A DNA stretch of 64,000 bases from Candidatus Omnitrophota bacterium. GTDB lineage: Bacteria; Omnitrophota; Gorgyraeia; 2-01-FULL-45-10. The stretch spans positions 182,814 to 246,813 of the forward strand of contig JAUYOL010000036.1 of the NCBI GenBank assembly GCA_030695905.1, read 5' to 3'. Shown one piece after another: positions 1 through 56,200 of the stretch (positions are counted from its first letter, which is position 1; the number at the start of each line of letters is the position of its first letter). The position numbers and the translations under genes were made by a program. The notes beneath the pieces were generated by a model. That model had not been told where the DNA came from, searched no databases, and worked only from the letters and a program-made list of their open reading frames with translations.

Positions 1-235
1 TTGCCGTTTCGGCATGAGCGGTCATGCATGAAAAACATGCGACATTCGCGGCCGCTATGCGTTCTGCTATAAACCGCAGGTCTTCTTTGGAGCGGATATT
101 TTTTGACGCAATATTCAGGAAATCCGCGTCCGGATAAGTCTTGCGAGCGATAGCGGCTATTTTGCGCAGCCCTATAGATATATAATCATTATCCAGGGCC
201 ACGAGGCATAGTTTTATTTTATGTGGAGCGTTCAT
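1..235 (-). CDS. Partial (N-terminal 78 aa, runs off window) B12-binding-domain radical SAM-like protein
   Basis: Own translation of the reverse strand from an ATG at 235..233: MNAPHKIKLCLVALDNDYISIGLRKIAAIARKTYPDADFLNIASKNIRSKEDLRF.... It resembles the N-terminal cobalamin-binding domain of the class B radical SAM at 4375..5886. Not in the ORF track because it is truncated by the window edge. Confidence 0.3.
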   Translation of the reverse strand, partial: MNAPHKIKLCLVALDNDYISIGLRKIAAIARKTYPDADFLNIASKNIRSKEDLRFIAERIAAANVACFSCMTAHAETA

Positions 236-266
236 CAAAAATTATTCCTTTATAGTTTTACGCAGG

Positions 267-1538
267 CTAAATAGTCGGCTCTGCTTTACTCGGAGTATCG
301 TAAGCATACTTTGGCAAACCTAATATACCCCTTATGATATTCTTGGTTCTTTTGTGCTTGTAAAAAAAGATGGAGGCCACATACCTGCAATGCATCCTGA
401 GGCTGCGAAAATTGATCTTCCGATATTTCAAAAAGAAACAAAATTCCTCGAGCGCATTTTTATATTTTCCATTTAACAGGAACAGCCCTATATATAGAAA
501 CCTGAATGTCGCATAATTTCTTATAAATTCTTTATCGACATATATGCTCGGATTCCTTTTCTCATACATATCTATATTCTCGAAGATCCTCGCAAATGCA
601 GTCCTCGCATCATAGTCCCTTACTGCCCTTTCATGCGCCCTTCTTGCAATATTTTCTCTTTCTTTTTCATTCGCCAGATAATAACGGATTTTTTGCAGCA
701 ATTCTTCTTTCGTTCGGAATACGTCTATCTCTTTCCCTATTTCGAACATGTTTTCCATGCCTGGCGCATATTCGCTTAAAACAAATCCTCCGCATAACGC
801 AATTTCTATAGGCCGCCCCTTGGACTGTTTGACCCTGTTATTAATATTCAAACCAAACAATGTCGAATCGGCGTTTATGCTGGTAAAATTCAAATTTATC
901 CTGCTTGTCCTGAATATGTCCAACATGTTGTCAAAGCCGACGTATCCATTCGAGGTGCCTTCGCCATAAGGCTGTATCTTCACGTTATTAGCGGCCAGAT
1001 AATCGATATGCTCTTTACGGTTTTTAGTCAGAAGACTGCCAACAAATGATACGTCGATATTTTTTTCGGAATCATGACTGCGCGAATACCGGTTCTTACT
1101 GAACAGGCTGAAAGTGCATATCGCATTTATGTTTAAAAGTTCATACCTGAACTTCGACAGGTAATCCGGCAGCGTTACTAAATTAGCTGCCTGCGCATAA
1201 TATTTATCGCTTGAATCAAAAAAATATTCCGTGTCAAAAAAATTCATACTTATAAATGACGAACTTGACAATTTTTTGATGAAATTAATATCAAAAGTTA
1301 AATCACTGGATCCGAGAATAAAGAAAATATAATTAATCCTTTTTTCAATAATCATGCCCTCGATTCTTTTCTCAAAAAGATTCTTCCCTGTCTGGATATA
1401 CAGATCCATATAGTCTACAAAGCAATAGTTATCGCTGTTTTCTTTTATACCATCGCAATAGTTTTCGCATATTGTGTTGGTTTTCCATAAATGAGATATT
1501 ACCATTGCATTACGCTCGGGCATCGGGATATCCTTCAT
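267..1538 (-). CDS. CgeB-like glycosyltransferase (Glyco_trans_1_2 / DUF3880-type)
   Basis: C-terminal segment IALCGGFVLSEYAPGMENMFEIGKEIDVFRTKEELLQKIRYYLANEKERENIARRAHERAVRDY is typical of the CgeB family GT-B C-terminal domain. Start chosen at the internal Met (MKDIPMP) to abut the upstream gene. Confidence 0.6.
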   Translation of the reverse strand: MKDIPMPERNAMVISHLWKTNTICENYCDGIKENSDNYCFVDYMDLYIQTGKNLFEKRIEGMIIEKRINYIFFILGSSDLTFDINFIKKLSSSSFISMNFFDTEYFFDSSDKYYAQAANLVTLPDYLSKFRYELLNINAICTFSLFSKNRYSRSHDSEKNIDVSFVGSLLTKNRKEHIDYLAANNVKIQPYGEGTSNGYVGFDNMLDIFRTSRINLNFTSINADSTLFGLNINNRVKQSKGRPIEIALCGGFVLSEYAPGMENMFEIGKEIDVFRTKEELLQKIRYYLANEKERENIARRAHERAVRDYDARTAFARIFENIDMYEKRNPSIYVDKEFIRNYATFRFLYIGLFLLNGKYKNALEEFCFFLKYRKINFRSLRMHCRYVASIFFYKHKRTKNIIRGILGLPKYAYDTPSKAEPTI

Positions 1539-2803
1539 GCAAATACACTTTTGCGCCGCCTGTATTTGAAAACAAGAATTACGGCGCATGTTGCGATCAT
1601 TTCTGAGATCAATAATGCGATCGAAATGCCTATATCTTTGTATAAAGGGGTTAAGATAAAAGCCAGTATCACGTTGATTACCCCCACGAATATAACTATT
1701 GAAGAGAACGCCTTATTCATGCTAAAGGTCAGCAATCCCTGTACAGCCACGATGCTGCTGGTTCCAAGAAGAAATGGCAGCGGCGAAAGTATCCTCAGGA
1801 TTATCACTGACCGAGTATATTGAGGGCCTAAAAGTATTTTCACGATATAGGGTGCGAAAATAAAAATAGTCGCCCCCATGATAATAGTCGCCACGCCGAC
1901 ACCAATAAGCAGTTTTTTGATGATAGCGACAGCTTTCTTTTTCGAGTCGACTACCAGCCGGCTTATATATGGATACATAGACTGCGAAACAGGGCTTAAC
2001 AACGCCACAAACGCCTTTACTATAGAGTCGGCTGCCTTATAATAGCCGACGATCTCATTTCTGCAAAACAGGCCTAAAATGAATATATTGCTTGTGGTAT
2101 AAACACTGACGGAAGCCATCCCTAAAAAAACATGCCATCCTTCCTTCAATTCCGAATAAATCGAAGTTTTCAAAGGAGCTTTTATTCTTATGCCGAATTT
2201 TTTTATAATGAGCCACAAGCTGATCACGCTGGCTGTAAAAGTCCCTATCAGATTTGATAAAGGCACATAAATATAGTCCGACTGTGCTTTTACAAAACTG
2301 AAGATGGCTACTATGAATATTACCCTCGATAACATGCTCAAATAACTAATATACTTCATTTTTTCCATTCCCTGAAAAAACCAGGTAGGGAAAAGGATAT
2401 TACACATGATAGCCAGATAAGACACTAAATAAAGGTCCCAGTCTCTCCTGAATTTGGAGAATACGGCTACTATCACGGTTAAAGCAACAAGGCATACGAA
2501 AAAGAGGATGGTTTTTATCAACATTATGGAATTAAAAACCTGCACAAGCCCCTCGTTGGTATCTCTGCTAACAGCGATCTTTTTCGATGCGGTATGTATA
2601 AAACCGTACTCGGCTATGACCATAAAATAGTAGACAAATGCCTGGGCGAATGCGACTAACCCGAATTTTTCAGGGCCCAGCACGCGGACAAGATAAGGTA
2701 ATGTAATGAGCGGCAATATATAGGTCGACCCCTGAAAAATGAACAACGATATGATATTCTCTATTATCTGTTTCTTTTCTCCGGAAATCGGCATATTTAT
2801 CAT
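1535..2803 (-). CDS. Wzx-like oligosaccharide flippase (MOP/polysaccharide biosynthesis protein family)
   Basis: About 420 aa polytopic membrane protein with the Wzx-type N-terminus (…ISLFIFQGSTYILPLITLPYLVRVLGPEKFGLVAFAQAF…) and 12 or more hydrophobic segments. Confidence 0.7.
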   Translation of the reverse strand: MINMPISGEKKQIIENIISLFIFQGSTYILPLITLPYLVRVLGPEKFGLVAFAQAFVYYFMVIAEYGFIHTASKKIAVSRDTNEGLVQVFNSIMLIKTILFFVCLVALTVIVAVFSKFRRDWDLYLVSYLAIMCNILFPTWFFQGMEKMKYISYLSMLSRVIFIVAIFSFVKAQSDYIYVPLSNLIGTFTASVISLWLIIKKFGIRIKAPLKTSIYSELKEGWHVFLGMASVSVYTTSNIFILGLFCRNEIVGYYKAADSIVKAFVALLSPVSQSMYPYISRLVVDSKKKAVAIIKKLLIGVGVATIIMGATIFIFAPYIVKILLGPQYTRSVIILRILSPLPFLLGTSSIVAVQGLLTFSMNKAFSSIVIFVGVINVILAFILTPLYKDIGISIALLISEMIATCAVILVFKYRRRKSVFA

Positions 2804-3561
2804 TTCATTCGCCGCAGAAAAGCGCCCGGCCAATAGGTAACGCGCTCTTTTATCTGCCCCTCATTAAACTGAAACACCGGTTCTTCCTGAACAAAATCAT
2901 CCCGCTCCGACAGAAAATTCTTAATAGCCGATTGTGGGTTGTCCGTAGCCCATTCAGGCTTGGTGCGCGGCGCCCCCACAAGCTCTTTCGTAATACCGTC
3001 GCATGCGACGATATATGAATCTACCGCTACAAATTCAGAATAGGCCCGTAATTCGGCCAGGACATGCTCTTTTGTGTGATTGGCATCTAAAATGACCAGG
3101 CCTTTTTCACCGCGTTTTACCTGAGAGCGGACCTTGCCGATTATCTTATTGTCAACAGACGACCCTTCGATCATGGTGATTAGGCTATACATATCATGCG
3201 CCTCGATAGCCTTGCGGTTGTGCGGCCGGATCTCAATATCTACGCCTATCACCCGTCCTTTACCCATCGCCTTAAAAAGGCTAGCGTAGAATATCAAGCT
3301 GCCTCCATGCGCTATACCGGTTTCGATCAATACATCCGGTTTCACGCGATAGATGACCTCCTGGATACGCATGACATCTTCAGGCAGCTGTATTATCGGA
3401 CGGCCCATCCATGTAAAGGAGTAGACGTGTTTTGTGTCCCACCCTGACCGTAGCCATAAAGAAGAGAGTAATTTAAACGCTTCGGGCGTGCCGATGTCAA
3501 ACTCGCGCTTGACGCCATTTTCAGTTACGGTGATATTATCGCCGTTAATACGTATATCCAT
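2800..3561 (-). CDS. Cephalosporin hydroxylase (CmcI)-family class I SAM-dependent methyltransferase, likely sugar O-methyltransferase
   Basis: 253 aa. The segment WMGRPIIQLPEDVMRIQEVIYRVKPDVLIETGIAHGGSLIFYA…VIGVDIEIR matches the CmcI / rhamnosyl O-methyltransferase family that is common in O-antigen loci. Confidence 0.7.
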   Translation of the reverse strand: MDIRINGDNITVTENGVKREFDIGTPEAFKLLSSLWLRSGWDTKHVYSFTWMGRPIIQLPEDVMRIQEVIYRVKPDVLIETGIAHGGSLIFYASLFKAMGKGRVIGVDIEIRPHNRKAIEAHDMYSLITMIEGSSVDNKIIGKVRSQVKRGEKGLVILDANHTKEHVLAELRAYSEFVAVDSYIVACDGITKELVGAPRTKPEWATDNPQSAIKNFLSERDDFVQEEPVFQFNEGQIKERVTYWPGAFLRRMK

Positions 3562-4378
3562 GTTCTACATCTTTCTTTTCCCTATAGCGGCGTACCATGC
3601 CCGCCAGAGAGCCCAGAACATCGCCGGGCGTCAGGCCGAGGTCCTTTCGCGCGCGTGAAATGTCGATCTCGGGGAAATCCAACAGCCGCGCGTCCGGGAC
3701 CACTTCCCACTTACAGTGTTCGACCGCGGTAATCGCCTCACAGACCTGCCTGTTGCTCAGGTTCCGGCCCGATGCGATATTGTATATGGGCCCGGACCGG
3801 GGCAGTTCCCCCAAAGCGATTATCGCCCCTACTGCGTCCTCCAGGAGAATGAAGTCCTTAGCGCTCTGGGCCATTGAATGCAGGAGTATCGATTTTTCTT
3901 CGCATGCCTCGCGCATAAGGACGGATATGAAATTATCGGATGAGAAGTCCGGCCCTATTACATTGGACAGGCGCGCAACGACCGCATTCCGCCCGGAATG
4001 CAGGCAAGCCGATTCGCCCATGAGTTTCGATATATTGTAAAGATCGGAAGGATCATTCGGATCCGCTAAAAGCACGCTATCCTCGTTCACGCATCCCTTA
4101 AGCCCCGCGTATACCCTTGTAGATGAAAGATAGACCAGTTTTTCATAACTTGTTTCGCGCAGGACGCGATTTAACACACATACATGCGCATCCACCGTAT
4201 CAAGTGGCCGTTGGCGGAAATCGGCGGTAAGGCCGATACAGTAAAACGCTACGCCCAGGTCGCGGCCCGACAGCTTCTCTTCGCGGGCCGGACAGAACAC
4301 GGAGTGGCCGCGCCGGCCCAGCGCCGCAGCTACGTGTTTGCCTATAAAACCGTTGACGCCGAGTACGGTATAGTTCAT
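3545..4378 (-). CDS. NAD(P)-dependent epimerase/dehydratase-family SDR (sugar reductase/epimerase)
   Basis: N-terminal VLGVNGFIGKHVAAAL Rossmann motif, 277 aa. Lies in a visibly GC-richer block than its neighbours. Confidence 0.7.
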   Translation of the reverse strand: MNYTVLGVNGFIGKHVAAALGRRGHSVFCPAREEKLSGRDLGVAFYCIGLTADFRQRPLDTVDAHVCVLNRVLRETSYEKLVYLSSTRVYAGLKGCVNEDSVLLADPNDPSDLYNISKLMGESACLHSGRNAVVARLSNVIGPDFSSDNFISVLMREACEEKSILLHSMAQSAKDFILLEDAVGAIIALGELPRSGPIYNIASGRNLSNRQVCEAITAVEHCKWEVVPDARLLDFPEIDISRARKDLGLTPGDVLGSLAGMVRRYREKKDVEHGYTY

Positions 4379-5886
4379 ATCTTGACCCCGTCGCTGTATT
4401 CAAGCGCTTCGTCCGACCACGAACGCTGTACAAGATCGGCGAAGAGAGATCTATTATTCTCGAAATCGCGCTCGCAGCGCTCTACTTTGGAAAGGTACTT
4501 TTCGGGCAGCTTCGTATACAACCTGAAACATCTCCGTATTCCCTCAACCTCCTCCGGGCTCATCGGCTGGCCCCGCAAAACGGTCTTTCCGGTAAAGGTC
4601 CGCGCAGCTTCATCGCCTTTTATATAACCATGGTCCATACAGAACTTCCTTAAGGGGACTCCAGTAAAAGGATAAAAGACGCTCATGATAGCCACGGTAG
4701 GCCGGATCTCGCGAATCAAACCTATCGTCTGAAAGGCCTCCCGGCGTGTTTCGGTAGGAAAGCCTATCATACAGTATGCGCTGGAACGCAACCCATAACG
4801 GTGTATCAAGGCAAAAGCATTATATATGGAATCGACCGTCATGTGCCGGCCGCATATATTCCGCAATATACGCGAGCTTCCCGATTCAACCCCTAAAGAT
4901 ATCTGCACCGGGACCCGCATCCCGGAGACCAGACGCATCTTGTCTTCAGTAATCGACTCGGGCCGGGTCTGTAAAATAAGCGGCAGGCGGATCTCTTTAC
5001 CGTACCAGCCGCAAAACCGTTCAATATCCCCGGTATTGTTATGAAAGAAGCACTCGTCCTGAAGCTGCAGTATCTCTGCTCCGCGATCCTTAAACTGCTT
5101 TACACCGCGCTGAAAATTTTCAAACGGGCGCACTCGAAAGAATTGACCAAGGCCCCTAAAGCTGTTTTTAAGCGCGGCATTGACGCAATAGCTGCACGAA
5201 AACGGGCATCCGCGGGAATACTCGATTAAAGCGCGGCGACGCATCCGGCCGTCATACGGCTTCAGTAGGTGCCTATTATCAAAAAGAGAGTGGTCGGGGC
5301 AGATATCCCAAAGCCTATCGGCCGGGATCAGCGGGCGCCTTGGATTTCTATTAATACCCTTTGGTGTGCGTACCCATAGGCCTGCTATACCGGAAACATC
5401 GTTTCCATCGCAAATTGCGCGTATCAGCTCCGCCCACGTATCTTCACCTTCGCCTACACATACGGCATTCACAAAAGGTTCGGCCATAACCGAATCCGGA
5501 TCGATGGTAGCATGCACCCCGCCTACAACAACAAGCGGCGAGACTTCCGGCAACTGAACATTTTCCATGACATCTTTGAACAGCTCCCATTCTAAAGAAT
5601 TGGCATGCACAGCCAGCACATCCGGATGAAATGAATTTAACTCATCCTTAAAGTCCGTGTAAAAACTCTGCAAAGGCGGATACTCTGATTTCTCACGCCC
5701 CTTTACGGGCATGAACTCTCCGGTAGATTCATGATCCTCGGTGGCGGTGTTGCTTTTGTTATAAAAGGTTGTTTCGACATAGCGCACCTCACATCCGGCG
5801 TCCTTTGCGATCGAAGAAAGTATTCCTACTGCCAGAGGTATTACTCCATCACTGCCGGTATTGGGGAACAGTATCATTATGCGCAT
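4375..5886 (-). CDS. Cobalamin (B12)-binding domain radical SAM protein (class B radical SAM, candidate C-methyltransferase)
   Basis: N-terminal B12-binding-like domain (MRIMILFPNTGSDGVIPLAVGILSSIAKDAGCEVRYV…) and a radical SAM CxxxCxxC motif (RGCPFSCSYC). 503 aa, GC-rich. Confidence 0.85.
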   Translation of the reverse strand: MRIMILFPNTGSDGVIPLAVGILSSIAKDAGCEVRYVETTFYNKSNTATEDHESTGEFMPVKGREKSEYPPLQSFYTDFKDELNSFHPDVLAVHANSLEWELFKDVMENVQLPEVSPLVVVGGVHATIDPDSVMAEPFVNAVCVGEGEDTWAELIRAICDGNDVSGIAGLWVRTPKGINRNPRRPLIPADRLWDICPDHSLFDNRHLLKPYDGRMRRRALIEYSRGCPFSCSYCVNAALKNSFRGLGQFFRVRPFENFQRGVKQFKDRGAEILQLQDECFFHNNTGDIERFCGWYGKEIRLPLILQTRPESITEDKMRLVSGMRVPVQISLGVESGSSRILRNICGRHMTVDSIYNAFALIHRYGLRSSAYCMIGFPTETRREAFQTIGLIREIRPTVAIMSVFYPFTGVPLRKFCMDHGYIKGDEAARTFTGKTVLRGQPMSPEEVEGIRRCFRLYTKLPEKYLSKVERCERDFENNRSLFADLVQRSWSDEALEYSDGVKI

Positions 5887-6395
5887 TTTTTATCCTTCTT
5901 CGATATCACCTTAACGTCAAGGGGCCATTTTATAGAAAATAACGGGTCATCCCACCTTACGCCCTTAGCGCACTCTGGATGATAAAATTCGGACATCTGG
6001 TAAAAAACAACTGAATCATCTTCCAGTGTCTGGTATCCATGCGCAAAACCTTTCGGGATATACAACATTCTGTAATCTTCCCCGCCTAACTCCAGCGCAT
6101 ACGATTTACGATAAGTGCAGGAGTCTTCCCGCAGATCTATTATAACGTCGTATATCCTGCCCTTTATACAGCTGACCAGCTTGGCCTGCTCGAACGGAGT
6201 AGACTGATAATGCATGCCGCGCAGCGTACCCCTGGCCTTGTTATAAGAGACATTGCACTGGACTATATTGAGGTCTATACCGTGCTCCTGAAATTCCTTC
6301 TGACAATAGGAGTAAGCAAAGAAACCGCGTTCGTCTTGGGCCTTCTCTAATTCTATGACATATGCGCCCTTTAATTTTGTTTCTTTGAATATCAT
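5877..6395 (-). CDS. RmlC-family NDP-4-keto-6-deoxyhexose 3,5-epimerase
   Basis: 172 aa cupin with the motifs RGMHYQ, IDLREDSCTY and IPKGFAHGYQ, matching the dTDP-4-dehydrorhamnose 3,5-epimerase family. Second RmlC paralog in the window. Confidence 0.75.
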   Translation of the reverse strand: MIFKETKLKGAYVIELEKAQDERGFFAYSYCQKEFQEHGIDLNIVQCNVSYNKARGTLRGMHYQSTPFEQAKLVSCIKGRIYDVIIDLREDSCTYRKSYALELGGEDYRMLYIPKGFAHGYQTLEDDSVVFYQMSEFYHPECAKGVRWDDPLFSIKWPLDVKVISKKDKKCA

Positions 6396-7636
6396 CGGAT
6401 CACCTCTAATTCCGGAATGGGAATAATGAAACTTCCTCCCCAGTCTCTTACATAAGAAAGCTGCCGCATTATTTCTTCTTTAATATTCCAGGGCAATATC
6501 AGGATGTAATCCGGCTTTGTCTGGCGTATCCTGTCCGGCGATACTATTGGTATGCGGCTGCCGGGCATAAACCGGCCTTGCTTATGCGGGCTTATATCCG
6601 CGACATAATCTATCAGGTCATTTTTTATGCCGCAGTAGTTAAGCATGGTGTTGCCCTTGGCTGCCGCGCCGTATCCGACAATAGTTTTTCCGTCATACCT
6701 TATCTTGCCTAAAAAACTGAGGAGTTCACATCTTGCCTTCTTAACCTTCTCGTCAAAAGCAAAATAATTTGTGATATCGGCATAGCCTGATTTGGTTTCT
6801 TTATCCAACATTTTGTGAACACGTTCACTAATCGGTTTTGTACCGTCATTTTTGTGTTTGACGTAAATTCTTAAGGAACCGCCATGCGTAGGCAGTTCTT
6901 CAACGTCAAAGATAACAAGAGAGTGGGAGAAAAAAACCTTTTCCGCCGTTAAAAACGAGAAATAGGAAAAATGTTCGTGATAAATGGTATCGAACTGCCT
7001 GCCCTCTATCAACCTTGCCAGATGCGGGAATTCCATTGTAATCATCCCATTCGGGTTCAGCAGTATGCTTAAGCCTTGGACAAAATCGTTTAGGTCCGGT
7101 ACATGCGCCAGGACATTATTCCCGATCAACAGGTCCGCTGTTTTACCCTCGCACGCCAGCCGCTTCGCGGTCCTGGCCCCAAAGAATGCCGTTTCAGTAG
7201 GTACATTTTTCTTCCGGGCCGTTTCGGCAACATTAACGGCCGGCTCAATACCTAACACGTTAGCACCTTTTCTCATAAAATACTGCAGCAAACAGCCATC
7301 GTTACTCGCTATTTCAACAATGCGGGATTTTTTATTTATCCCGTAATCCTTAAACATCTTATCGGCATACTCTTCGCAGTGTCTCATCCACGTTTCGGAA
7401 CAAGAGGAAAAATACGCATAATCGCTGAATATATTCTCCGGGCTCTCGAACTCGGGCAATTGGACTAGAAGACAATTATCGCAAACGTAAACATCTAGAG
7501 GATACAACGGTTCTTTACGAGCCAACTGCTCTTTCTTAATATAGGCGTTCGACAAAGGCGCAGAGCCTAAAGATACGAACAATTGCCTAAGCTCTTTATT
7601 GCAAAATCTGCATCTCATTTTTACCAGACCTTCCAC
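6392..7636 (-). CDS. Zn-ribbon / class I SAM methyltransferase / C-methyltransferase-C-terminal-domain protein (TylCIII/NovU-like NDP-sugar C-methyltransferase family)
   Basis: N-terminal CxxC…CxxC (CRFCNKE…CDNC), central methyltransferase fold (IVEIASNDGCLLQYF), and the C-terminal domain typical of sugar C-methyltransferases. Confidence 0.7.
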   Translation of the reverse strand: MEGLVKMRCRFCNKELRQLFVSLGSAPLSNAYIKKEQLARKEPLYPLDVYVCDNCLLVQLPEFESPENIFSDYAYFSSCSETWMRHCEEYADKMFKDYGINKKSRIVEIASNDGCLLQYFMRKGANVLGIEPAVNVAETARKKNVPTETAFFGARTAKRLACEGKTADLLIGNNVLAHVPDLNDFVQGLSILLNPNGMITMEFPHLARLIEGRQFDTIYHEHFSYFSFLTAEKVFFSHSLVIFDVEELPTHGGSLRIYVKHKNDGTKPISERVHKMLDKETKSGYADITNYFAFDEKVKKARCELLSFLGKIRYDGKTIVGYGAAAKGNTMLNYCGIKNDLIDYVADISPHKQGRFMPGSRIPIVSPDRIRQTKPDYILILPWNIKEEIMRQLSYVRDWGGSFIIPIPELEVIR

Positions 7637-8391
7637 GGCGCTTTATCGGCATCCCATAACCGCTCTAATTCCAACTTATCCCGCAGGGTATCCATCGGTT
7701 TCCAAAATCCCGTATGTTTATAAGCGACCAGATGACCCTTCTTCGCCAGATTTTCGAGCGGTTCCTTTTCCCAGTGCGTACTATCGCCTTCGATGTAATC
7801 AAAGATACCGGCCTCGAGGACGAAAAAACCCGCGTTGATCCAGTTATTATCTCCTCGCGGTTTTTCCAGGAATGAATTGACCTTGCCTGATCTTCCTACA
7901 TCCAGGCTGCCGAATCTGCCGAGCGGCTGTACCGCAGTTACCGTAGCCATCTTTTTGTGCTTACGATGAAAACGTACCAGCTCCCTTATATCGATCCGTC
8001 CCACCCCGTCGCCGTATGTCATTAAAAACGGCTCTTTCCCGATATATTTTTTAATCCTTTTTATCCGGCCGCCAGTGATAGTTTCCATGCCCGTATCGAC
8101 CAGCGTAACCTTCCACGGCTCTGAAGAGCTTGAATGAACGCTCACTTTATTTTTTTTCATGTCTATCGTTACATCGCTTGTGTGCAAAAAATAGTGTGAA
8201 AAATATTCCTTGATGATATAGCCCTTGTATCCCAAACAGACTATAAAATCGTTGAAACCGTAATGCGAATAGATCTTCATGATATGCCATAGTATTGGTT
8301 TGCCTCCGACCTCTATCATGGGTTTGGGTATCACGCTTGTCTCTTCGCTGATCCTCGTCCCCATGCCACCCGCAAGGATAACTACCTTCAT
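7621..8391 (-). CDS. rfbF: Glucose-1-phosphate cytidylyltransferase (CDP-glucose pyrophosphorylase)
   Basis: MKVVILAGGMGTRISEETSVIPKPMIEVGGKPILWHIMKIYSHYGFNDFIVCLGYKGY is the RfbF/DdhA signature. Start placed at the internal Met (MKVVILAGG), which abuts the upstream gene. Confidence 0.85.
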   Translation of the reverse strand: MKVVILAGGMGTRISEETSVIPKPMIEVGGKPILWHIMKIYSHYGFNDFIVCLGYKGYIIKEYFSHYFLHTSDVTIDMKKNKVSVHSSSSEPWKVTLVDTGMETITGGRIKRIKKYIGKEPFLMTYGDGVGRIDIRELVRFHRKHKKMATVTAVQPLGRFGSLDVGRSGKVNSFLEKPRGDNNWINAGFFVLEAGIFDYIEGDSTHWEKEPLENLAKKGHLVAYKHTGFWKPMDTLRDKLELERLWDADKAPWKVW

Positions 8392-10469
8392 ATGCCTACC
8401 TCCTCTTTCCGGCCAGTTAATCGTAACCAAAATAAAAATATCGCGACTACCACCGTCAATGCCCAGGCCAAGAAAACATATCTAAAATATACGGCAAAAA
8501 TGAACAGGTTGATAAAGTGAAGGCTAAGGCAAACGACGGCTATCATCCTCATATCAGGCGGCATCTTTCTTTTAAGAAAAGCCGCATAAAATACCAGCCC
8601 CAGAAATATCGCACGATACCATGGAGCTATCATGATCTTTAAATGCGCCGCAATCCTTGCGATACTCCCGCCGGATAAATTGAATGCCAATAATTCTTTA
8701 AAGGCGTCCAGATATAGCGACGGCGGCGTAGAAAGAGCCGTCCGGGCAAAAGCCGTGAAGACACAAAACTTGTGCCCGAAAAAATAATTATGTAAAAGCG
8801 TAAATAAGACCGGGGTGAAACCCAGCCACGAAAATAATACTTCTTTAAAGCGTCCGGCCAGCATCAATTTGCCCGCAAAATAACACAGGACTATCAACGC
8901 GGCGATCGAGAACTGGGGGCGCATAAATACCGTTACAAAAAGCAAAAGATGCGCCAGGAACCCGTACCAGTAATACGCGCCATTTCGGATTTTTGCGTAT
9001 CTTAATAAAAGGGTGAGCGCCCCGAGAAAGGCGGTATATGCCAAAGTATCGGGCCATCCTCCCCGCACCACCATCACATAGATATAGTATGTGAAACCAA
9101 GCCTATCTATTGTATGAGACTGCAAAAATACGCCAAATAAAAAAAACATTGTTATCCAGAAAGACCATCTTCTTGATATAAAATTCTCCAGAAATCCGAA
9201 AAGGACATAAGGCAATATTAAAACAACGGCCAGATATCCGAAATTGGTATCGCCAAAAAATAATTTCTCTACCGCTCGAAAATACCGGAATCCGGGCGTA
9301 TTCCAGAAAATATCCTCTCCCCCGCGCAGGGCCTGTTTCCAATTCCCGGATAAAGCGTTGACCAGCACCTGTCTGCCCAGGGTTTCATGGGTTGGGCCGT
9401 CTTCGCCGCCTTCATGAATAAAATACTGCCCGAACAGGTGCGGACAATATATATAAGTTATGGCCGCTGCAATAAGTATTATTGAGCATGCAAGAAGAAA
9501 GCGCTTTCTGTCTATCTTGATCATCAGATTGAGGATGAATAACGCCCCTAAGGCCTCCGGTATCCTTTTTAAAAGAGCTGAAAATTTCAGCATGGGCGAT
9601 AAGACCAGGCTCATGGAAAGAGGAATCTCTTTGTTTTCTTCCGGCGCATGTATAGGCTTTTTGCCGGATAAGAAAAGCCTTATTCTCGATTTTAAATCTT
9701 TAAACCTGCCCCAGAAACCCGGCTGCTCCTTATTATTTATGGCTACCCCGAAAACTTTTTTACCGATATCCAGATCCGCTATCTTTCTACAGCCTCTGGT
9801 CTCGTTGTATATGGCCTCATAATGCCCATCCGCGCCTTCCCATAAGAGATACCCGGTCCAGCATAACGAACTATTAACAGAAGAAGGTGATAACTCATAC
9901 ATTACAAAAAATGGCATGCTATCCCGCCTGATATCGGACGCCCCGAACCAGCCATAGGCGCTATCATTCGCAAAGCCGCCCCTGAATTCTGTAAGATTGT
10001 TAAAGTTTATACTATCGACTATGCGGCTGTATTTCGGCTTTGAGAGGGCCGAATCCGCCGAAAAAACAAAGAGAGATTGAGGCGGCCGGCATTGCCAGCA
10101 TCCGCTGTCGCTGGAAGTCCTTTTATCCAAAGGATACTTTTTTAAGAATTGCTGCTTCATAAAAGCGAAGGCTTCAGGAGGCAGCCCCTTCTCCAGTGTC
10201 TCGTTGTCGCCTTTTGTGAAAAAGATATTGTGCCCTTCCTGGATAGCCGCATGAGGAATAATACCCTTGATAATAAGGACGAAAATGGCTATAAATGAGG
10301 CGACGACCAATCGCTTATAAGAACAGCTGATCTTGCTGTTCACTATAGCTAATCCGGATATAAAAATGACCACGAAGCTGAAAACACTTATAACAGGCAA
10401 TCCGACACAGATCACTATCAGGACAAAACAAGCGATCTTCTTCAAGATTTCGTAAAAATTAAACTCCAT
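8388..10469 (-). CDS. Large polytopic membrane protein, GT-C-like (PMT_2/ArnT-like) glycosyltransferase candidate with an extra N-terminal soluble/periplasmic region
   Basis: 693 aa. N-terminal TM segments, then a ~250 aa hydrophilic region, then 10 or more TM helices. The FWNTPGFRYFRAVEKLFFGD segment resembles the R-x-PGYP loop motif of GT-C family 39/83 transferases. Assignment is tentative. Confidence 0.4.
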   Translation of the reverse strand: MEFNFYEILKKIACFVLIVICVGLPVISVFSFVVIFISGLAIVNSKISCSYKRLVVASFIAIFVLIIKGIIPHAAIQEGHNIFFTKGDNETLEKGLPPEAFAFMKQQFLKKYPLDKRTSSDSGCWQCRPPQSLFVFSADSALSKPKYSRIVDSINFNNLTEFRGGFANDSAYGWFGASDIRRDSMPFFVMYELSPSSVNSSLCWTGYLLWEGADGHYEAIYNETRGCRKIADLDIGKKVFGVAINNKEQPGFWGRFKDLKSRIRLFLSGKKPIHAPEENKEIPLSMSLVLSPMLKFSALLKRIPEALGALFILNLMIKIDRKRFLLACSIILIAAAITYIYCPHLFGQYFIHEGGEDGPTHETLGRQVLVNALSGNWKQALRGGEDIFWNTPGFRYFRAVEKLFFGDTNFGYLAVVLILPYVLFGFLENFISRRWSFWITMFFLFGVFLQSHTIDRLGFTYYIYVMVVRGGWPDTLAYTAFLGALTLLLRYAKIRNGAYYWYGFLAHLLLFVTVFMRPQFSIAALIVLCYFAGKLMLAGRFKEVLFSWLGFTPVLFTLLHNYFFGHKFCVFTAFARTALSTPPSLYLDAFKELLAFNLSGGSIARIAAHLKIMIAPWYRAIFLGLVFYAAFLKRKMPPDMRMIAVVCLSLHFINLFIFAVYFRYVFLAWALTVVVAIFLFWLRLTGRKEEVGI

Positions 10470-10472
10470 CTA

Positions 10473-11819
10473 CTAATCTCCTACTATCCTCGGTGATGGC
10501 AGCGGTACTATGTACCTTCCCTTAAATCCTTTTTCTCTCAACTTGGGCATTAATTCATCGGCTATGTGCCACGAGAGCAAAAGCGCATATTCCGGCTGGT
10601 ACTTGAAAAGCAACGATTCTTCCAATATTGGTATAAGTGTCCCGGGCATATATTTGCCGATCTTGTATGAACCCTTGATCTCCAAAACGCAATCCAGTAT
10701 ACCGTCATCGATCCCGGTATAATTTATAAGCGTGCTTGCTCTTGAGGGCGCGCTTATACCATATATCCTTCCGCCATTCTTTTTAATGTCTTTTAATAAA
10801 GAGCTTAACTCCAGTTTGGACAATACGACCTTGTCCTTGAACTTCATCAGGCTTTCTTTGCTAAGAACAACCGGGGCCTCTTCCTTCAGGAGCGCGACAA
10901 CCGTATCCCTCACCTTATATTGCCCCTTCCTTGCCGCATATACTCTTATTGAACCTCCGTGAGTAGGGATGCGCTTGGCATGGAATATCTCCAGGCCGTG
11001 CGCCTTAAGAAGATACTGCAGGCTATGCAGCGAATAATAGCGCAGGTGTTCATGGTAGATAGTATCATATTGCAGCGTTTCGATAAGAGGCAAAAGATAG
11101 TGTGACTCTGAAATAAATACGCCGTTTTTTGACAATAACCGGAGGATGCATTCTACTATTTCATTGATATCTTCAATATGGGCAAAGACGTTGGTTGCCG
11201 TAATAACCTTTGCCTGGCCGCTCTTTGTCAAAATATTCTCTACAACATCTTTTGTAAAGTAATCGATGACGGTAGGTATGCCCCGCTTGATCGCGATCTT
11301 GCCGATATCTTCCGGTGTAATGCCGAGAACGTTATGGAGGCCCTTGAAGTTGCTTAAAAGGTTTCCGTCGTTTGAGCCGATATCCACGACCAGGTCGCTT
11401 GATTTCAGGTCTATCAGGCCAATGCATTCTTTGTAAAGTTCGGCAAAGTTTTCTCTCAATATTTTGGTCGTGCTACTGGTATAAGGGTATTCCGAAGGAA
11501 ACAATATACCGGCGTCAACGATGAGGCCGAGCTGTACCAGGCGGCATTTAGCGCAATATAATAACTGAGCAGGGTAACTATTTTCTTCCTTTGGCATTTC
11601 ACCGATCTTGTGCATCTTATTTACCGGAGGCAGATACCCTAGAAAAAGAATCGGTTCCAGTTTAGGGTTGTCACATATCTGACAACGTTCGACAACAACG
11701 CTTGAGCCTGTCTTGAAAGTAAGATTAGCGGTATTATTCAAGTGTGTCCCCCTTATATTGTTTATCGTACCATACGGCCGTAAGATCCAACCCCTTGGCA
11801 AAAAAGGTTTTTGGCACAT
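10473..11819 (-). CDS. Second Zn-ribbon C-methyltransferase-family protein (paralog of 6392..7636)
   Basis: CQICDNP…CAKC ribbon, methyltransferase core (VVDIGSNDGNLLSNF), and a C-terminal C-methyltransferase domain. Same architecture as 6392..7636. The start is uncertain: the ORF overlaps the upstream gene by ~86 nt and has no internal alternative start before the ribbon. Confidence 0.7.
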   Translation of the reverse strand: MCQKPFLPRGWILRPYGTINNIRGTHLNNTANLTFKTGSSVVVERCQICDNPKLEPILFLGYLPPVNKMHKIGEMPKEENSYPAQLLYCAKCRLVQLGLIVDAGILFPSEYPYTSSTTKILRENFAELYKECIGLIDLKSSDLVVDIGSNDGNLLSNFKGLHNVLGITPEDIGKIAIKRGIPTVIDYFTKDVVENILTKSGQAKVITATNVFAHIEDINEIVECILRLLSKNGVFISESHYLLPLIETLQYDTIYHEHLRYYSLHSLQYLLKAHGLEIFHAKRIPTHGGSIRVYAARKGQYKVRDTVVALLKEEAPVVLSKESLMKFKDKVVLSKLELSSLLKDIKKNGGRIYGISAPSRASTLINYTGIDDGILDCVLEIKGSYKIGKYMPGTLIPILEESLLFKYQPEYALLLSWHIADELMPKLREKGFKGRYIVPLPSPRIVGD

Positions 11820-12708
11820 ACCCCAGTTTCTTTAATTTCGAAATATCGGGGCAGCGGTGCAACGTTCCCCCTTCAGCCGGCTTGCCCGGCCTGACGATGA
11901 TCTTCCTGTTAAAATACCTTCCCACTTCCGCGGCTAATTTTTTAATCGTCACCTCTTCCATGGTCCCGATGTTGTAGATGCCCAGATGTTCTCCCTTTTT
12001 AATAACCATCATGAGCCCGTCAATAAAATCGTCTATAAAAACAAATGATCGTGTCTCTTGGCCGGTCCCCTGTATGGGGAACTGTATCTGTTTCGAACTG
12101 TTTTTTCCGCAAAGCTCTTTCATCCTGAGAATAAACTGCGGGATGACATGTTCTTTGCCCATATCGGGCCCATATACATTATGCGGCCTGAATATAATTA
12201 CCCTGTCAAAATGCTTCCGTCCGTAATTTATAGCCATGAGCTCGCTGATTATCTTGCCTCCGCCGTAAGAATAGCGCGGGTTAAGCGGATCGGGAATACT
12301 CAGCGGCACCTTTTCGTCAGTGGGGATATTCGGCGGCGTCTGATATACTTCCGAACTGGAGGCTACTATTAATTCACGCACGCCCTCTTTGATACATGCG
12401 TCTATAATATTGACTATGCCTTTCACTCCGATCTCAAGTACCAGTTCCGGTTTGGTATAGAAAAATTCCGTGCCATTCAAATATGCAAGATGGCATACGG
12501 CATCCACTCCCTTACATGCTTCTTGAACAGCTTTTGGTTCACGTATATCTGCCTTGATCACCTCTATTTGAGACGATATATTCTTGAGCCTGTCGAATCC
12601 TCCCCTGGAACCGTTATCTAAAACCCTTACCCGGCACCCGTCTTTTAAAAGACTGCGCACGAGGGCACTGCCTATAAAACCCGTTCCGCCGGTTACCAGA
12701 TATTTCAT
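11734..12708 (-). CDS. NAD-dependent NDP-sugar epimerase/dehydratase (extended SDR). Candidate 4,6-dehydratase or 4-reductase of the CDP-sugar branch
   Basis: MKYLVTGGTGFIGSALVRSLL Rossmann motif, SxnYxxxK-type catalytic region (YSYGGGK), 324 aa. Confidence 0.8.
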   Translation of the reverse strand: MKYLVTGGTGFIGSALVRSLLKDGCRVRVLDNGSRGGFDRLKNISSQIEVIKADIREPKAVQEACKGVDAVCHLAYLNGTEFFYTKPELVLEIGVKGIVNIIDACIKEGVRELIVASSSEVYQTPPNIPTDEKVPLSIPDPLNPRYSYGGGKIISELMAINYGRKHFDRVIIFRPHNVYGPDMGKEHVIPQFILRMKELCGKNSSKQIQFPIQGTGQETRSFVFIDDFIDGLMMVIKKGEHLGIYNIGTMEEVTIKKLAAEVGRYFNRKIIVRPGKPAEGGTLHRCPDISKLKKLGYVPKTFFAKGLDLTAVWYDKQYKGDTLE

Positions 12709-12709
12709 C

Positions 12710-13777
12710 TTAAGCCTTCCTTATAAACATCTTCGTTAATTGTGCCGCATTAAAAAGGATGTTAGTCGTAATGGCGCATTCGTAGGTGCAATAGCACTTG
12801 GTATCCTTGATAAAGCTCCTGAGCTTTGCCGCCCGGGCAGAACGCCATAGTTTTTTAAAATCATAATCTGCGTCTTTTATATTGCCGATCTTCTTGTCAA
12901 GCATTTCGCAGGGGTATAGGTCTCCGGTCTGGGTCATGACACAGCTGATATTTCCTGCTCGGCAGGGGATCACGAATCTATCCTCTTTAAATACGGTGGA
13001 TATGACCTGTTTCTGCAGCAGTTCTCTGCGCTTGATAAAGGTTTTGCCCAGCAAATTAAAATGCCCGAGATCTCCCGTGGCCCATCCTTCTTTCTGGATC
13101 TTTATGAACTCGAAATAATGCTTCAGGTCCACTTCGCCCAGGTCGGTGGAGCGCGGTTTACCTCTTATAAGATTGATCGAAATAGTGTCCGGTTTAACCT
13201 CGCTCCTCAGGAACAACGCTAAGGCCCCCATCTCCTTTTGATTTTCTGCGCTGCAGGTAGTAATGGTCGCTACATTCAGATTCTTAAAGTCTTTTTTGAG
13301 CTTCTTAAGCTCCCGTACCGTGCCCAGGGCCTTTTCAAACCCGCCCTGAAGGCCCCTGATCCGGTCATGAGTCTCCTTCATACCGTCCAGTGAGACGTAT
13401 AGTATTACGCGTGAGCCTTTGCATGCCTTGCATATATCGGAAACCGAACGAATGACATGATCCTGCAAAATGCCGTTTGTACATATGGTCAGGAGGTTGA
13501 ATCTGTTGTTATCATAAAAGATCCTGGCGATCTGGGCGATATCCTCTCTTAAAAAAGGCTCGCCACCGGTCAGGGAGAGCCAGAGCAGTTCACCCATTCC
13601 CTGCGAGAGCTTCTCTATCTCTTTTAAGGATAATTCGTCTTTCGGGCCGTGCAGGTTCTCGAGGTAAAAGCAGTGCCTGCACCTGAGGTTGCATCTGGAA
13701 GTAATGAAAAAAATGAACTGGAGCGGGTCACCTTTAGAGAAAAATATTCTTGGCAGAAATTTGAGCAGATTAGCCAT
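12710..13777 (-). CDS. Radical SAM protein with C-terminal SPASM/twitch-like Cys-rich domain
   Basis: N-terminal CNLRCRHC (CxxxCxxC), plus a C-terminal cluster PCRAGNISC…C…CYCTYEC. 355 aa. Confidence 0.8.
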   Translation of the reverse strand: MANLLKFLPRIFFSKGDPLQFIFFITSRCNLRCRHCFYLENLHGPKDELSLKEIEKLSQGMGELLWLSLTGGEPFLREDIAQIARIFYDNNRFNLLTICTNGILQDHVIRSVSDICKACKGSRVILYVSLDGMKETHDRIRGLQGGFEKALGTVRELKKLKKDFKNLNVATITTCSAENQKEMGALALFLRSEVKPDTISINLIRGKPRSTDLGEVDLKHYFEFIKIQKEGWATGDLGHFNLLGKTFIKRRELLQKQVISTVFKEDRFVIPCRAGNISCVMTQTGDLYPCEMLDKKIGNIKDADYDFKKLWRSARAAKLRSFIKDTKCYCTYECAITTNILFNAAQLTKMFIRKA

Positions 13778-27826: not shown

Positions 27827-27829
27827 GTA

Positions 27830-55004: not shown

Positions 55005-55005
55005 A

Positions 55006-56199: not shown

Positions 56200-56200
56200 A

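Follow-up and report, generated by a model that had tools for sequence, protein, structure and literature searches.

Three recurring modules in a predicted surface-glycan locus of an Omnitrophota bacterium, including a putative methylated CDP-deoxysugar cassette with a B12-type radical SAM enzyme

Do the glucose-1-phosphate cytidylyltransferase (RfbF), C-methyltransferases and radical SAM enzymes at one end of an Omnitrophota contig segment build a single, heavily methylated CDP-hexose, or do they belong to separate pathways? A sequence-only reading of the window (the whole 64,000-nt stretch analyzed here) had proposed the former for 1..13777, where every gene lies on the minus strand and genes are tightly packed or overlapping (Table 1). 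Pfam and NCBIfam profile searches confirm the families encoded there, i.e., RfbF, two TcaB9/MtmC-type C-methyltransferases (CMT1 and CMT2), RmlC, two SDRs, CmcI, a Wzx flippase and a glycosyltransferase (GT), as well as one class B and one SPASM radical SAM enzyme, so that the methyltransferase and radical SAM assignments of that reading all survive. The two C-methyltransferases, described as paralogues, both match PF08421 and PF08484 and share 32% identity. The second class B enzyme suspected at the window edge is also real: its translated start is the N-terminus of a protein encoded at 15652-17208 of the source contig (L001) that carries PF02310 and PF04055, is 25% identical to the first and has sub-threshold NCBIfam class B matches. 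The 693-aa membrane protein was missing from the earlier gene list.

Table 1. Features of the glycan locus and its surroundings, in window coordinates.
Feature	Position	Strand	Evidence or remark
Second B12-binding radical SAM, N-terminal 78 codons	1..235	-	518 aa; extends beyond window start
GT (Glyco_trans_1_2, CgeB-like)	267..1538	-	PF13524 90.1 bits; 84% identical in L172
Wzx-type flippase	1535..2803	-	PF01943 189 bits
CmcI/rhamnosyl-O-methyltransferase-family methyltransferase	2800..3561	-	PF04989 227.8 bits
Short SDR (277 aa), putative NDP-4-ketosugar reductase	3545..4378	-	PF01370 80.6 bits
Class B radical SAM with B12-binding domain (module A)	4375..5886	-	PF02310 40.8 bits (cutoff 32.1); PF04055 57.1 bits
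RmlC, canonical 3,5-epimerase	5877..6395	-	TIGR01221 177.5 bits (cutoff 155.75); PDB 1ep0 E 9e-42
CMT1, NDP-sugar 3-C-methyltransferase homologue	6392..7618	-	PF08421 80.6 bits; PF08484 223.1 bits
TGGTAAAAATGA, single copy at RfbF stop/CMT1 start	7615..7626	-	Footprint where relatives have a CDP-glucose 4,6-dehydratase-like gene
RfbF, glucose-1-phosphate cytidylyltransferase	7621..8391	-	TIGR02623 433.5 bits (cutoff 300)
Polytopic membrane protein (693 aa), predicted GT-C fold	8388..10469	-	No Pfam/NCBIfam match
CMT2, second sugar C-methyltransferase homologue	10473..11741	-	PF08421 46.5 bits; PF08484 127.8 bits
SDR324, extended SDR (324 aa)	11734..12708	-	Overlaps CMT2 start by 8 nt
SPASM radical SAM	12710..13777	-	PF04055 55.2 bits; PF13186 27.4 bits (cutoff 21.5)
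Membrane-anchored GT2, coupled to SPASM enzyme	13770..14735	-	PF00535 109.8 bits; NCBIfam best TIGR04283 95 bits
GT2 like polyprenyl-phosphate sugar synthases (ArnC/PpgS/AglJ-like)	14741..15475	-	Kept in L088 and L172; NCBIfam PgfS 57, PpgS 52, ArnC 43, AglJ 41 bits, all sub-threshold
Short RmlD-like SDR	15475..16254	-	PF04321 101 bits; syntenic with module B in L088
NDP-sugar dehydrogenase	16229..17443	-	TIGR03026 250.9 bits (cutoff 189.8); syntenic with module B in L088
Sole DegT protein	19408..20514		RfbH model 178 bits (cutoff 423)
rmlD, rmlB, rmlA, small cupin (weak RmlC/FdtA-like)	25237..28276	-	Second nucleotide-sugar activation route, same locus; rmlD TIGR01214 333 bits, rmlB TIGR01181 466 bits
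rmlA	27098..27826	-	TIGR01207 263 bits
Small cupin	27830..28276	-	TIGR01221 39 bits
Corrinoid protein	38115..38756		Past glycan locus end

Comparison of gene neighborhoods divides the region into three separately occurring modules: module A (RfbF–CMT1–RmlC–B12 radical SAM–SDR–CmcI; 2800..8391), module B (SDR324–CMT2–GT-C) and module C, a translationally coupled GT2–SPASM radical SAM pair. Module A is found again in Omnitrophota, in other bacterial MAGs and in Ca. Methanoperedens, and its RfbF usually adjoins a CDP-glucose 4,6-dehydratase gene. Its order is nearly the same in loci L172 (88% identity), L002/L087 (82%), L004 (Omnitrophota UBA10183), L082 (Ca. Methanoperedens), L085 and L168, the last with RmlC and CMT swapped, and partial versions occur in L003 and L089. 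It stands alone (i.e., without CMT2, GT-C and the SPASM enzyme) in L082, L004 and L168, and is also alone in L085; the GT2–SPASM pair occurs alone in L170 and L171, and SDR324–CMT2–GT-C accompanies a different, CMT1-less cassette in L088. Because the same gene sets keep a syntenic order in unrelated lineages, their clustering is not chance. The three modules are independently conserved, and we regard module A as a mobile cassette.

These patterns bear directly on the proposal that both C-methyltransferases, both B12 enzymes, the SPASM enzyme and CmcI hyper-methylate one CDP-hexose. The genes do form an unbroken, co-directional run around the sole RfbF, and 1..13777 holds no other activator. 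However, the modules are found apart elsewhere, and the locus also contains rmlA, rmlB, rmlD and three NDP-sugar dehydrogenases, so we regard a single sugar as improbable. The reported lack of a second activator is accurate inside 1..13777 but not locus-wide, as rmlA, rmlB and rmlD belong to the same co-directional locus, with rmlA 13 kb farther upstream. Similarly, of the two RmlC-like epimerases that had been counted, the cassette copy is canonical, but the other is the small cupin with its low score on the same family model. The corrinoid protein that had been tentatively tied to the cassette has housekeeping neighbors (accD-like, DUF1015, ABC ATPase) and appears unrelated to it. We instead favor, at somewhat better than even confidence for the explanation as a whole, a region built from modules A, B and C in the distal part of a long Wzx-dependent surface-glycan locus whose genes all run in one direction.

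What would module A make? CMT1 has full-length PDB matches to MtmC (4rv9, E 1.1e-80) and to KijD1 and TcaB9 (about 1e-67), and it retains the Zn-ribbon cysteines plus the 'DTIYHEH' and 'LAHV' motifs. The short SDR has GxxGxxG and YxxxK and, among solved structures, is best matched by GDP-6-deoxy-D-mannose reductase (6x3b, E 8.8e-10), and it always lies directly behind the B12 enzyme in type-1 cassettes; the CmcI-type gene is the B12 enzyme's most conserved partner (60–66% identity in L003, L004, L082, L085 and L168). From these memberships we infer substrates and an order of steps: RfbF would supply CDP-glucose, a 4-keto intermediate would arise through CDP-glucose 4,6-dehydratase in most relatives and here through SDR324 as a putative substitute, the MtmC/TcaB9-like CMT1 would C-methylate that intermediate, RmlC would epimerize it, the short SDR would reduce it and the CmcI-like enzyme would O-methylate it. 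The product would be a vinelose/nogalose-type 3-C-methyl, O-methyl 6-deoxy-L-hexose, to which the class B radical SAM enzyme may add one more modification. Known 3-C-methyl/O-methyl 6-deoxyhexose logic (mycarose/nogalose type) accounts for all module A genes but the B12 enzyme.

The dehydratase itself is missing, as are RfbH and RfbI, in agreement with the sequence-only reading. Specifically, no RfbG-type dehydratase was found in the whole 64 kb (TIGR02622 best 36–108 bits vs. a cutoff of 278; tblastn best 29%), and the sole DegT protein falls far below the RfbH cutoff. The gap is exact and flanked by a 12-nt repeat: L002, the closest dehydratase-bearing relative, has TGGTAAAAATGA twice (7236 and 8219, 983 bp apart) bracketing its dehydratase-like gene, and the window sequence around its single copy matches L002 to the left of the first copy and to the right of the second. 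So precise an absence relative to L002, with no RfbG-type gene elsewhere in the 64 kb, would fit a decaying remnant inactivated by dehydratase loss. Yet the ORFs are all intact, L172 shares the dehydratase-less layout though it comes from another sample, and all 14 genes compared between the window and L172 show dN/dS of 0.06–0.23 at unsaturated dS (0.3–1.3). RfbF is the most constrained gene (dN/dS 0.04–0.06). All genes are under purifying selection despite the missing dehydratase, and decay is hardly credible.

In relatives, the RfbF-adjacent dehydratase scores 505 bits on TIGR02622 in L004, 214 in L002 and 207 in L085, and is present also in L003 and L168. With RfbF adjoined there by a gene that is, or comes close to, a CDP-glucose 4,6-dehydratase, the cassette is by ancestry a CDP-6-deoxyhexose pathway. 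The Methanoperedens locus L082 likewise has no RfbG nearby, so RfbG may not be required, and the L085 cassette adjoins rmlA/rmlB, so the nucleotide carrier may vary.

The enzyme left over carries CxxxCxxC at residue 227, and its AF2 model (pLDDT 90.3) matches MgmA, TsrM, CysS, TokK, AprD4 and OxsB in Foldseek (E 1e-17 to 1e-21), a comparison that leaves methylases, AprD4 and OxsB undistinguished. On every NCBIfam class B model the enzyme falls far short of the cutoff. It has at least 120 homologues at 45–100% identity, and in a 50%-clustered library a single representative at 556 bits is followed by the next at 358 bits, which places the enzyme in a distinct orthogroup set off from its nearest neighbors. 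Among the 120 homologues listed, none represents a cultured organism with a solved glycan structure that carries the cassette. Homologues at 43–53% also adjoin TcaB9-like C-methyltransferases, SDRs and O-methyltransferases (L005, L084, L086, L094 and L169). All type-1 cassettes, from bacteria and an archaeon alike, have the gene of this enzyme between those for RmlC and the ketoreductase, with stop and start codons that overlap, a placement typical of enzymes sharing one soluble intermediate. Since it sits inside a nucleotide-sugar tailoring cassette and not in a peptide-maturation context—as had been anticipated—a deoxyhexose that is C- and O-methylated and passes through an additional radical-SAM step would be a reasonable product of module A. 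The most likely reaction would be cobalamin-mediated methyl transfer to an unactivated carbon (ring C-H, C6, C-methyl branch or O-methyl group), in keeping with the sugar-carbon C-methylating class B enzymes GenK, GenD1, Fms7 and MoeK5 of antibiotic pathways (PMC12931638), among which GenK methylates C-6' (PMC4039129).

Alternatively, this enzyme and the following SDR might act like AprD4/AprD3: the radical enzyme would turn a vicinal diol on the CDP-sugar into a deoxy-keto sugar by dehydration, and the SDR would then reduce that product. Such a reaction would stand in for the C3-deoxygenation that E1/E3 (RfbH/RfbI) carry out in classical CDP-dideoxyhexose pathways, and, because the enzyme would itself make the 4-keto sugar, RfbG could be dispensable. 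CDP activation is a 3,6-dideoxyhexose hallmark, yet RfbH/RfbI are absent; selection maintains dehydratase-less cassettes in two clades; in each type-1 cassette the SDR gene overlaps the end of the radical SAM gene; and AprD4 (6fd2) is the best phmmer PDB match (E 5.1e-12; Foldseek 3.8e-18, TMt 0.71). That match, however, is limited to the radical SAM core (196-443), whereas sequence alignment pairs the N-terminal domain with the true cobalamin-binding domains of TokK (87-235), CysS (79-242) and TsrM, with PF02310 above threshold, and AprD4 does not bind cobalamin (PMC12931638). The NCBIfam AprD4 model gives 50.5 bits against a cutoff of 500, a C-methyl sugar pathway would in any case need the short SDR as its 4-ketoreductase, and most relatives keep an RfbG-like gene. 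We consider an AprD4-like role distinctly unlikely and retain methyl transfer as the preferred reaction.

Module C raises the further question of whether the radical SAM enzymes act on a CDP-sugar at all. The SPASM enzyme has its CxxxCxxC at C29/C33/C36, and every NCBIfam match to it is far below cutoff; its orthologues in L170 and L171 (59–62%) likewise follow an orthologous GT2 (48–50%) with an 8-nt overlap. Coupled in this way to a GT2 and to no nucleotide-sugar enzyme, it would suit a scenario in which the radical SAM enzymes modify a lipid-linked or polymerized glycan, or a non-sugar, and share no more than a mosaic glycan locus with the CDP-sugar genes. Past the window edge, the second B12 enzyme and a fourth radical SAM have glycosyltransferases and methyltransferases as neighbors; B12-domain paralogues of about 30% identity are widespread in glycan loci of many phyla, and Clostridium sp. 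CX1 has a 45% homologue in a flagellin-glycosylation locus that has no C-methyltransferase. The invariant position of the module A enzyme between RmlC and the ketoreductase argues the other way, and we judge this scenario unlikely, though worth keeping in view.

Module B points to a second sugar. CMT2 is syntenic with SDR324 and GT-C in L002, L088 and L172. SDR324 scores 155.8 bits on LegB, 124 on RmlB and only 36 on the CDP-dehydratase model, with 8rdg, UXS (at 1e-26) and RmlB as best PDB matches; its motif is SSSEVY...YGGGK, and SSSEVY would suit GMD-type dehydratases and UXS/ArnA decarboxylases equally well. SDR324 is a candidate for the step that supplies an NDP-4-ketosugar, whether it acts as a 4,6-dehydratase or a UXS/ArnA-like decarboxylase. 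Taken with the dehydrogenase, short SDR and ArnC-like GT2 encoded upstream (order in L088: NDPDH-SDR259-GT2b-SDR324-CMT2-GT-C), module B looks like an Arn-type route, judging by sub-threshold profile matches and synteny, in which a second C-methylated sugar would be loaded on polyprenyl phosphate and transferred outside the membrane.

Among known systems, module B comes closest to Arn/Gtr-type three-component glycosylation, which combines a polyprenyl-phosphate sugar synthase GT2, a flippase and a GT-C (e.g., ArnT), but no detectable similarity in sequence links its GT-C to known GT-C families, and the route includes an additional C-methyltransferase. The B12 enzyme shares domain architecture and fold with GenK, GenD1, Fms7 and MoeK5, precedents for methylation of unactivated sugar carbons that act on intermediates of aminoglycosides or moenomycin instead of nucleotide sugars or surface glycans (PMC12931638; PMC4039129; PMC4340712). 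AprD4/AprD3 resembles it in the radical SAM core and in the adjacent SDR, which mirrors AprD3, but differs in the cobalamin-binding domain.

Module A as a whole is a widely shared cassette for a putative methylated CDP-deoxysugar, always with an uncharacterized B12-type radical enzyme. Its enzyme set is that of dTDP-L-mycarose/nogalose-type pathways (TylC3/MtmC/TcaB9/KijD1 with an RmlC-like epimerase, a 4-ketoreductase and O-methyltransferases), and it shares the logic of antibiotic 3-C-methyl-6-deoxyhexose pathways, i.e., 4-keto sugar, C-methylation, epimerization, reduction and O-methylation. In those pathways, however, the carrier is dTDP instead of CDP; module A also has an extra class B radical SAM enzyme and a CmcI-type O-methyltransferase, and it lies in Wzx-type surface-glycan loci of uncultivated anaerobes and an archaeon, not in a secondary-metabolite cluster. 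The claim that such branched sugars are not described for CDP carriers was overstated: CDP-yersiniose is one, and CDP-vinelose (CDP-6-deoxy-3-C-methyl-2-O-methyl-L-talose) was described from Azotobacter vinelandii in the 1960s. To our knowledge the biosynthesis genes of CDP-vinelose have not been established. Vinelose requires no radical SAM step, but it is otherwise the kind of CDP-linked, 3-C-methyl, O-methyl 6-deoxy-L-hexose that RfbF, a dehydratase, a C-methyltransferase, RmlC, a reductase and an O-methyltransferase would be expected to produce.

Read from sequence alone, the start of the window (1..13777) had been taken as one CDP-hexose branch, and a comparison of gene neighbourhoods shows a mosaic of modules instead (see table). 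The family assignments made in that reading were all borne out by Pfam and NCBIfam profile searches—RfbF, for example, scores 433.5 bits against a cutoff of 300.25 as a glucose-1-phosphate cytidylyltransferase (TIGR02623), and the CmcI-type methyltransferase 227.8 bits—though it had passed over a 693-aa ORF without a family match that lies between RfbF and CMT2, one of the two C-methyltransferase homologues. We refer to the cassette of RfbF, CMT1 (the other homologue), RmlC, a B12-domain class B radical SAM enzyme ("the B12 enzyme"), a short SDR (SDR277) and CmcI as module A; to SDR324, CMT2 and the 693-aa protein as module B; and to a GT2 glycosyltransferase with a SPASM radical SAM enzyme as module C.

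Neighbourhoods were gathered singly, from look-ups of exact proteins and from tblastn searches in which window proteins were run against the fetched loci. A set of NDP-transferase, C-methyltransferase, RmlC, B12 enzyme, SDR of about 275 aa and CmcI recurs in relatives at 88% (locus L172) and 82% (L002/L087), in the Omnitrophota lineage UBA10183 (L004), in the archaeon Ca. Methanoperedens (L082), and in loci L085 and L168. Partial sets occur in L003 and L089; L088 and L167 have no CMT1 and still carry RmlC, SDR, CmcI and the B12 enzyme, and L169 has a TylF-type O-methyltransferase in place of CmcI. More distant homologues of the B12 enzyme (43–49%) sit in a second cassette type, with a C-methyltransferase, a DegT aminotransferase and SDRs (L005, L084, L086, L094). 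Across these loci its partners are almost always a TcaB9-like C-methyltransferase, an SDR and an O-methyltransferase, and these recurring neighbourhoods argue that the family is dedicated to nucleotide-sugar tailoring. Separately, a 45% homologue occurs in Clostridium sp. CX1 (GCA_025398335.1; L083), the only cultured carrier among the matches listed, within a flagellin-glycosylation locus of two flagellins, two large glycosyltransferases, an SDR, the B12 enzyme and a UDP-GlcNAc 2-epimerase-type gene.

Most of module A can be placed in known chemistry. CMT1 and CMT2, which share 32% identity, both exceed the cutoffs for the N-terminal domain PF08421 (80.6 and 46.5 bits) and the C-terminal domain PF08484 (223.1 and 127.8 bits), and a four-Cys zinc ribbon (CxxC...CxxC) is visible in each. 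CMT1 can be aligned over its full length to MtmC, KijD1 and TcaB9, 3-C-methyltransferases of solved structure, with active-site motifs kept ("NVLAHV" and "DTIYHEH" against MtmC; "NVFAHI" and "DTIYHEH" in CMT2), motifs that we take to hold the TcaB9 active-site residues H181, Y222, E224 and H225. The cassette RmlC, previously labelled a second, RmlC-like epimerase, is the canonical one (TIGR01221 177.5 bits, cutoff 155.75, equivalog level), the small cupin beside rmlA reaching only 39 bits; aligned with 1ep0 it retains the segments "RGxH(F/Y)Q", "KLV" and "YHPE" as well as "WDDP", presumably the site of the catalytic His, Lys, Tyr and Asp. The closest solved relative of the short SDR is GDP-4-keto-6-deoxymannose reductase. 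From the CMT1, RmlC and short SDR assignments and the established logic of branched 6-deoxyhexoses, module A would yield a CDP-6-deoxy-3-C-methyl-O-methyl-L-hexose. The earlier idea of a methylated deoxysugar made with a radical-SAM step is plausible, though not as the product of a single branch, and the B12 enzyme is the only module A member without a place in the predicted route.

The B12 enzyme carries its cluster motif as C227-x3-C231-x2-C234 (PF04055 57.1 bits, cutoff 29.5), with CxxxCxxC invariant among 13 homologues, and an N-terminal B12-binding domain of Rossmann type (PF02310 40.8 bits, cutoff 32.1). Residues 79-242 align by phmmer with the cobalamin domains of TokK, CysS and TsrM; the alignment with AprD4 covers the core only, not the N-terminal domain, and NF033070, the AprD4-family model, gives 50.5 bits where its cutoff is 500. 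The predicted fold (pLDDT 90.3) retrieved MgmA, TsrM, CysS and TokK with Foldseek at E about 1e-20; it also resembles AprD4 and OxsB, and Foldseek did not separate the methylases from either. As AprD4 and ArsL illustrate, the fold by itself is no proof of cobalamin binding (PMC12931638). At least 120 homologues at 45–100% identity occur in Omnitrophota, Thermodesulfobacteriota, Ca. Methanoperedens and a Clostridium; in a 50%-clustered library they collapse to one representative at 556 bits, with the next protein at 358 bits, and therefore form a distinct orthogroup. Among the matches listed, genome and metagenome scans with the B12 enzyme as query turned up paralogues for the most part, at about 30% identity. 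A review from 2026 counts GenK, GenD1, Fms7 and MoeK5 as sugar-carbon methylases and names no nucleotide sugar or cell-surface glycan as the substrate of any class B enzyme (PMC12931638); the sugar-methylating members known so far belong to antibiotic pathways. Our literature search returned nothing tying radical SAM enzymes to CDP-glucose or C-methyltransferases, cobalamin-dependent radical SAM enzymes to nucleotide sugars or polysaccharide, or B12-binding proteins to a cytidylyltransferase. Given the N-terminal match to the TokK, CysS and TsrM cobalamin domains, the fold and these precedents, we favour an extra methylation at an unactivated carbon as the predicted reaction; candidate targets are a ring carbon, C6, the C-methyl branch and, as in CysS, the O-methyl group.

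A second puzzle concerns the 4-keto sugar on which such a route would draw. The rfbG/H/I-type genes, reported as not apparent, were found in the window neither by profile searches nor by tblastn: the best TIGR02622 scores for a CDP-glucose 4,6-dehydratase are 36–108 bits (cutoff 278), the L002 and L004 dehydratases match at no more than 29% identity, the sole DegT-family protein scores 178 bits as RfbH (E1; cutoff 423) and better as PseC, and no ferredoxin-reductase-type protein (E3, RfbI) is among the Pfam matches at 1-32 kb. In L004 the gene between RfbF and the C-methyltransferase encodes a true CDP-glucose 4,6-dehydratase (505 bits). A shorter relative, for which TIGR02622 is the best model, occurs in L002 (214 bits), L085 (207 bits) and L168, and L003 has a dehydratase relative after RfbF. 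In the window, CMT1 starts directly after the RfbF stop. Aligned with L002, the window lacks exactly the 983 bp that separate two copies of a 12-nt repeat; in L002 these copies bracket the dehydratase-like gene, and L172, like the window, has one copy. The repeat is a clear microhomology trace left by loss or gain of the gene. Deletion in the window is favoured over insertion in L002, since five other lineages have a dehydratase beside RfbF, though its absence there from Ca. Methanoperedens and L088 counts against this polarity.

Neither misassembly nor ongoing decay accounts for the dehydratase-less layout. Specifically, L172, which comes from a different sample and whose B12 enzyme is 88% identical, shares the junction and the same 20-gene order, and dN/dS is low against both L172 (0.06–0.23 in all fourteen genes, dS 0.3–1.3) and L002 (0.04–0.13); we accordingly rejected both an artefactual junction and a pseudogenised module A. 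The 4-keto sugar comes either from another enzyme or from a dehydratase encoded elsewhere, and SDR324, its gene translationally coupled to CMT2, is a candidate supplier. The B12 enzyme, as a radical dehydratase paired with the SDR, is a live rival to the methylase reading: if it made the deoxy-4-keto sugar itself, the stable dehydratase-less cassettes here and in Ca. Methanoperedens would be explained. We nevertheless think it unlikely that it is a radical dehydratase or oxidase rather than a methylase, acting directly on the CDP-hexose to make the deoxy-4-keto intermediate and, in anaerobes, replacing RfbG and/or the E1/E3 pair of the classical CDP-dideoxyhexose route.

The block of dehydrogenase, short SDR, ArnC-like GT2, SDR324, CMT2 and GT-C protein is syntenic in L088, L172 and L002, which suggests an Arn-like route loading a second C-methylated sugar on polyprenyl phosphate. 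The 693-aa protein has a predicted polytopic GT-C membrane fold and belongs to no described family (PMT_2, ArnT, STT3 or others) by Pfam or NCBIfam match; none of its 88 homologues has a Pfam match on the shared membrane region, and two carry a fused methyltransferase domain.

The SPASM enzyme of module C (PF04055 55.2 bits; PF13186 27.4 bits, cutoff 21.5; Cys-rich C-terminus at positions 272-334) matched no named maturase family, the best NCBIfam scores being AhbD 86, WgkB 82 and NirJ 78 bits against cutoffs of 500–650. Its conserved neighbour is the GT2, neither a peptide nor a protease, and on this context we rejected a peptide maturase. Orthologues at 59–62% in L170 and in a Patescibacteria MAG (L171) overlap the end of the orthologous GT2 exactly as in the window, and the pair is kept in different phyla, where its glycan loci also encode PMT_2-type GT-C proteins and B12-domain radical SAMs. 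By conserved context, the SPASM enzyme is a GT2-coupled radical SAM.

Position of features in the window and in comparison loci
Feature	Position	Strand	Remarks
CmcI-type methyltransferase	2800..3561	-	module A
B12 enzyme	4375..5886	-	module A
RmlC	5877..6395	-	module A
CMT1	6392..7618	-	module A
12-nt repeat TGGT(A/T)AAAATGA	7615..7626 (one copy); L002 7236-7247 and 8219-8230	-	spans stop/start junctions
RfbF	7621..8391	-	module A
GT-C protein, 693 aa	8388..10469	-	module B
CMT2	10473..11741	-	module B
SDR324	11734..12708	-	module B
SPASM radical SAM	12710..13777	-	module C
GT2 (about 320 aa) + SPASM pair	12710..14735; L170 6046-8080; L171 6058-8071	-	8-nt overlap
DUF362 protein + 164-aa ORF	17891..19424	-	
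DegT aminotransferase	19408..20514	-	
Dehydrogenase with intein, 922 aa	22476..25244	-	
rmlA, rmlB, rmlD	25.2-27.8 kb	-	
Cupin, 148 aa	27830..28276	-	
Two tandem GGDEF diguanylate cyclases	33544..36170	-	one with GAF
Corrinoid protein, stand-alone	38115..38756	-	B12-binding + B12-binding_2
Two tandem HI0933-like flavoproteins	53766..56235	-	
Remainder of second B12-binding radical SAM, GT2, methyltransferase, protein without assigned family, GT1	beyond window start		
Fourth radical SAM	beyond window start		281 aa, CxxxCxxC at residue 48

The modules lie in a larger glycan locus. The minus strand carries every gene from ~29.6 kb to the window start, with short gaps or overlaps, and on the source contig the locus extends past that start, a stretch we read on the 171.5-kb Logan contig (SRR13727529) that matches the window. 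That no second sugar activator is evident holds inside 1..13777 and fails for the locus: rmlA, rmlB and rmlD and three NDP-sugar dehydrogenases are present, so other activated sugars feed it. One UDP-glucose/GDP-mannose dehydrogenase is split by an intein (Intein_splicing and LAGLIDADG_3 domains between the central and C-terminal dehydrogenase domains). The cupin adjoining rmlA also matches Polysacc_synt_C, proteins like it (137–155 aa) in L086, L168 and L169 have FdtA or RmlC-type (dTDP_sugar_isom) matches, and it may be a 3,4-ketoisomerase partner of the DegT aminotransferase. Between that aminotransferase and a MarR_EPS regulator sit a DUF362 protein and an ORF without a family match. Scans for promoters and terminators gave background-level signal, and tRNA and Rfam searches found no tRNA and no Rfam family. 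The stand-alone corrinoid protein, tentatively linked to the sugar genes in the sequence-only reading, was rejected as a cassette partner: it lies about 6–8 kb past the last glycan gene, beside an accD-like carboxyltransferase, a DUF1015 protein and an ABC ATPase. Apart from the diguanylate cyclases and flavoproteins, the remaining 32-64 kb is housekeeping (hrcA-grpE-dnaK-dnaJ, hflX, miaA and a MiaB-like radical SAM among others).

What is new here is a conserved class B radical SAM enzyme in a nucleotide-sugar cassette, a dehydratase-less variant of that cassette, and two previously unannotated partners, a GT-C family and a GT2–SPASM pair. Because the cassette is compact, well conserved in bacteria and an archaeon, and has the radical SAM enzyme as its sole unexplained step, an assay with CDP-glucose and five or six recombinant enzymes can address that step directly, and would reveal either a deoxysugar new to microbial envelopes, branched or alkylated, or the formation of deoxy-keto sugars by a radical route. 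The by-products, a GT-C glycosyltransferase family without an existing profile and the conserved GT2–SPASM pair, are starting points for work on the little-known envelope glycans of Omnitrophota, Patescibacteria and DPANN-type organisms. The sugar had been held to be of a kind not described for CDP-linked sugars, a claim that goes too far: a literature search for vinelose returned nothing, yet CDP-vinelose, of the older literature, and CDP-yersiniose are branched CDP-sugars, and the predicted module A product shares the chemistry of CDP-vinelose.
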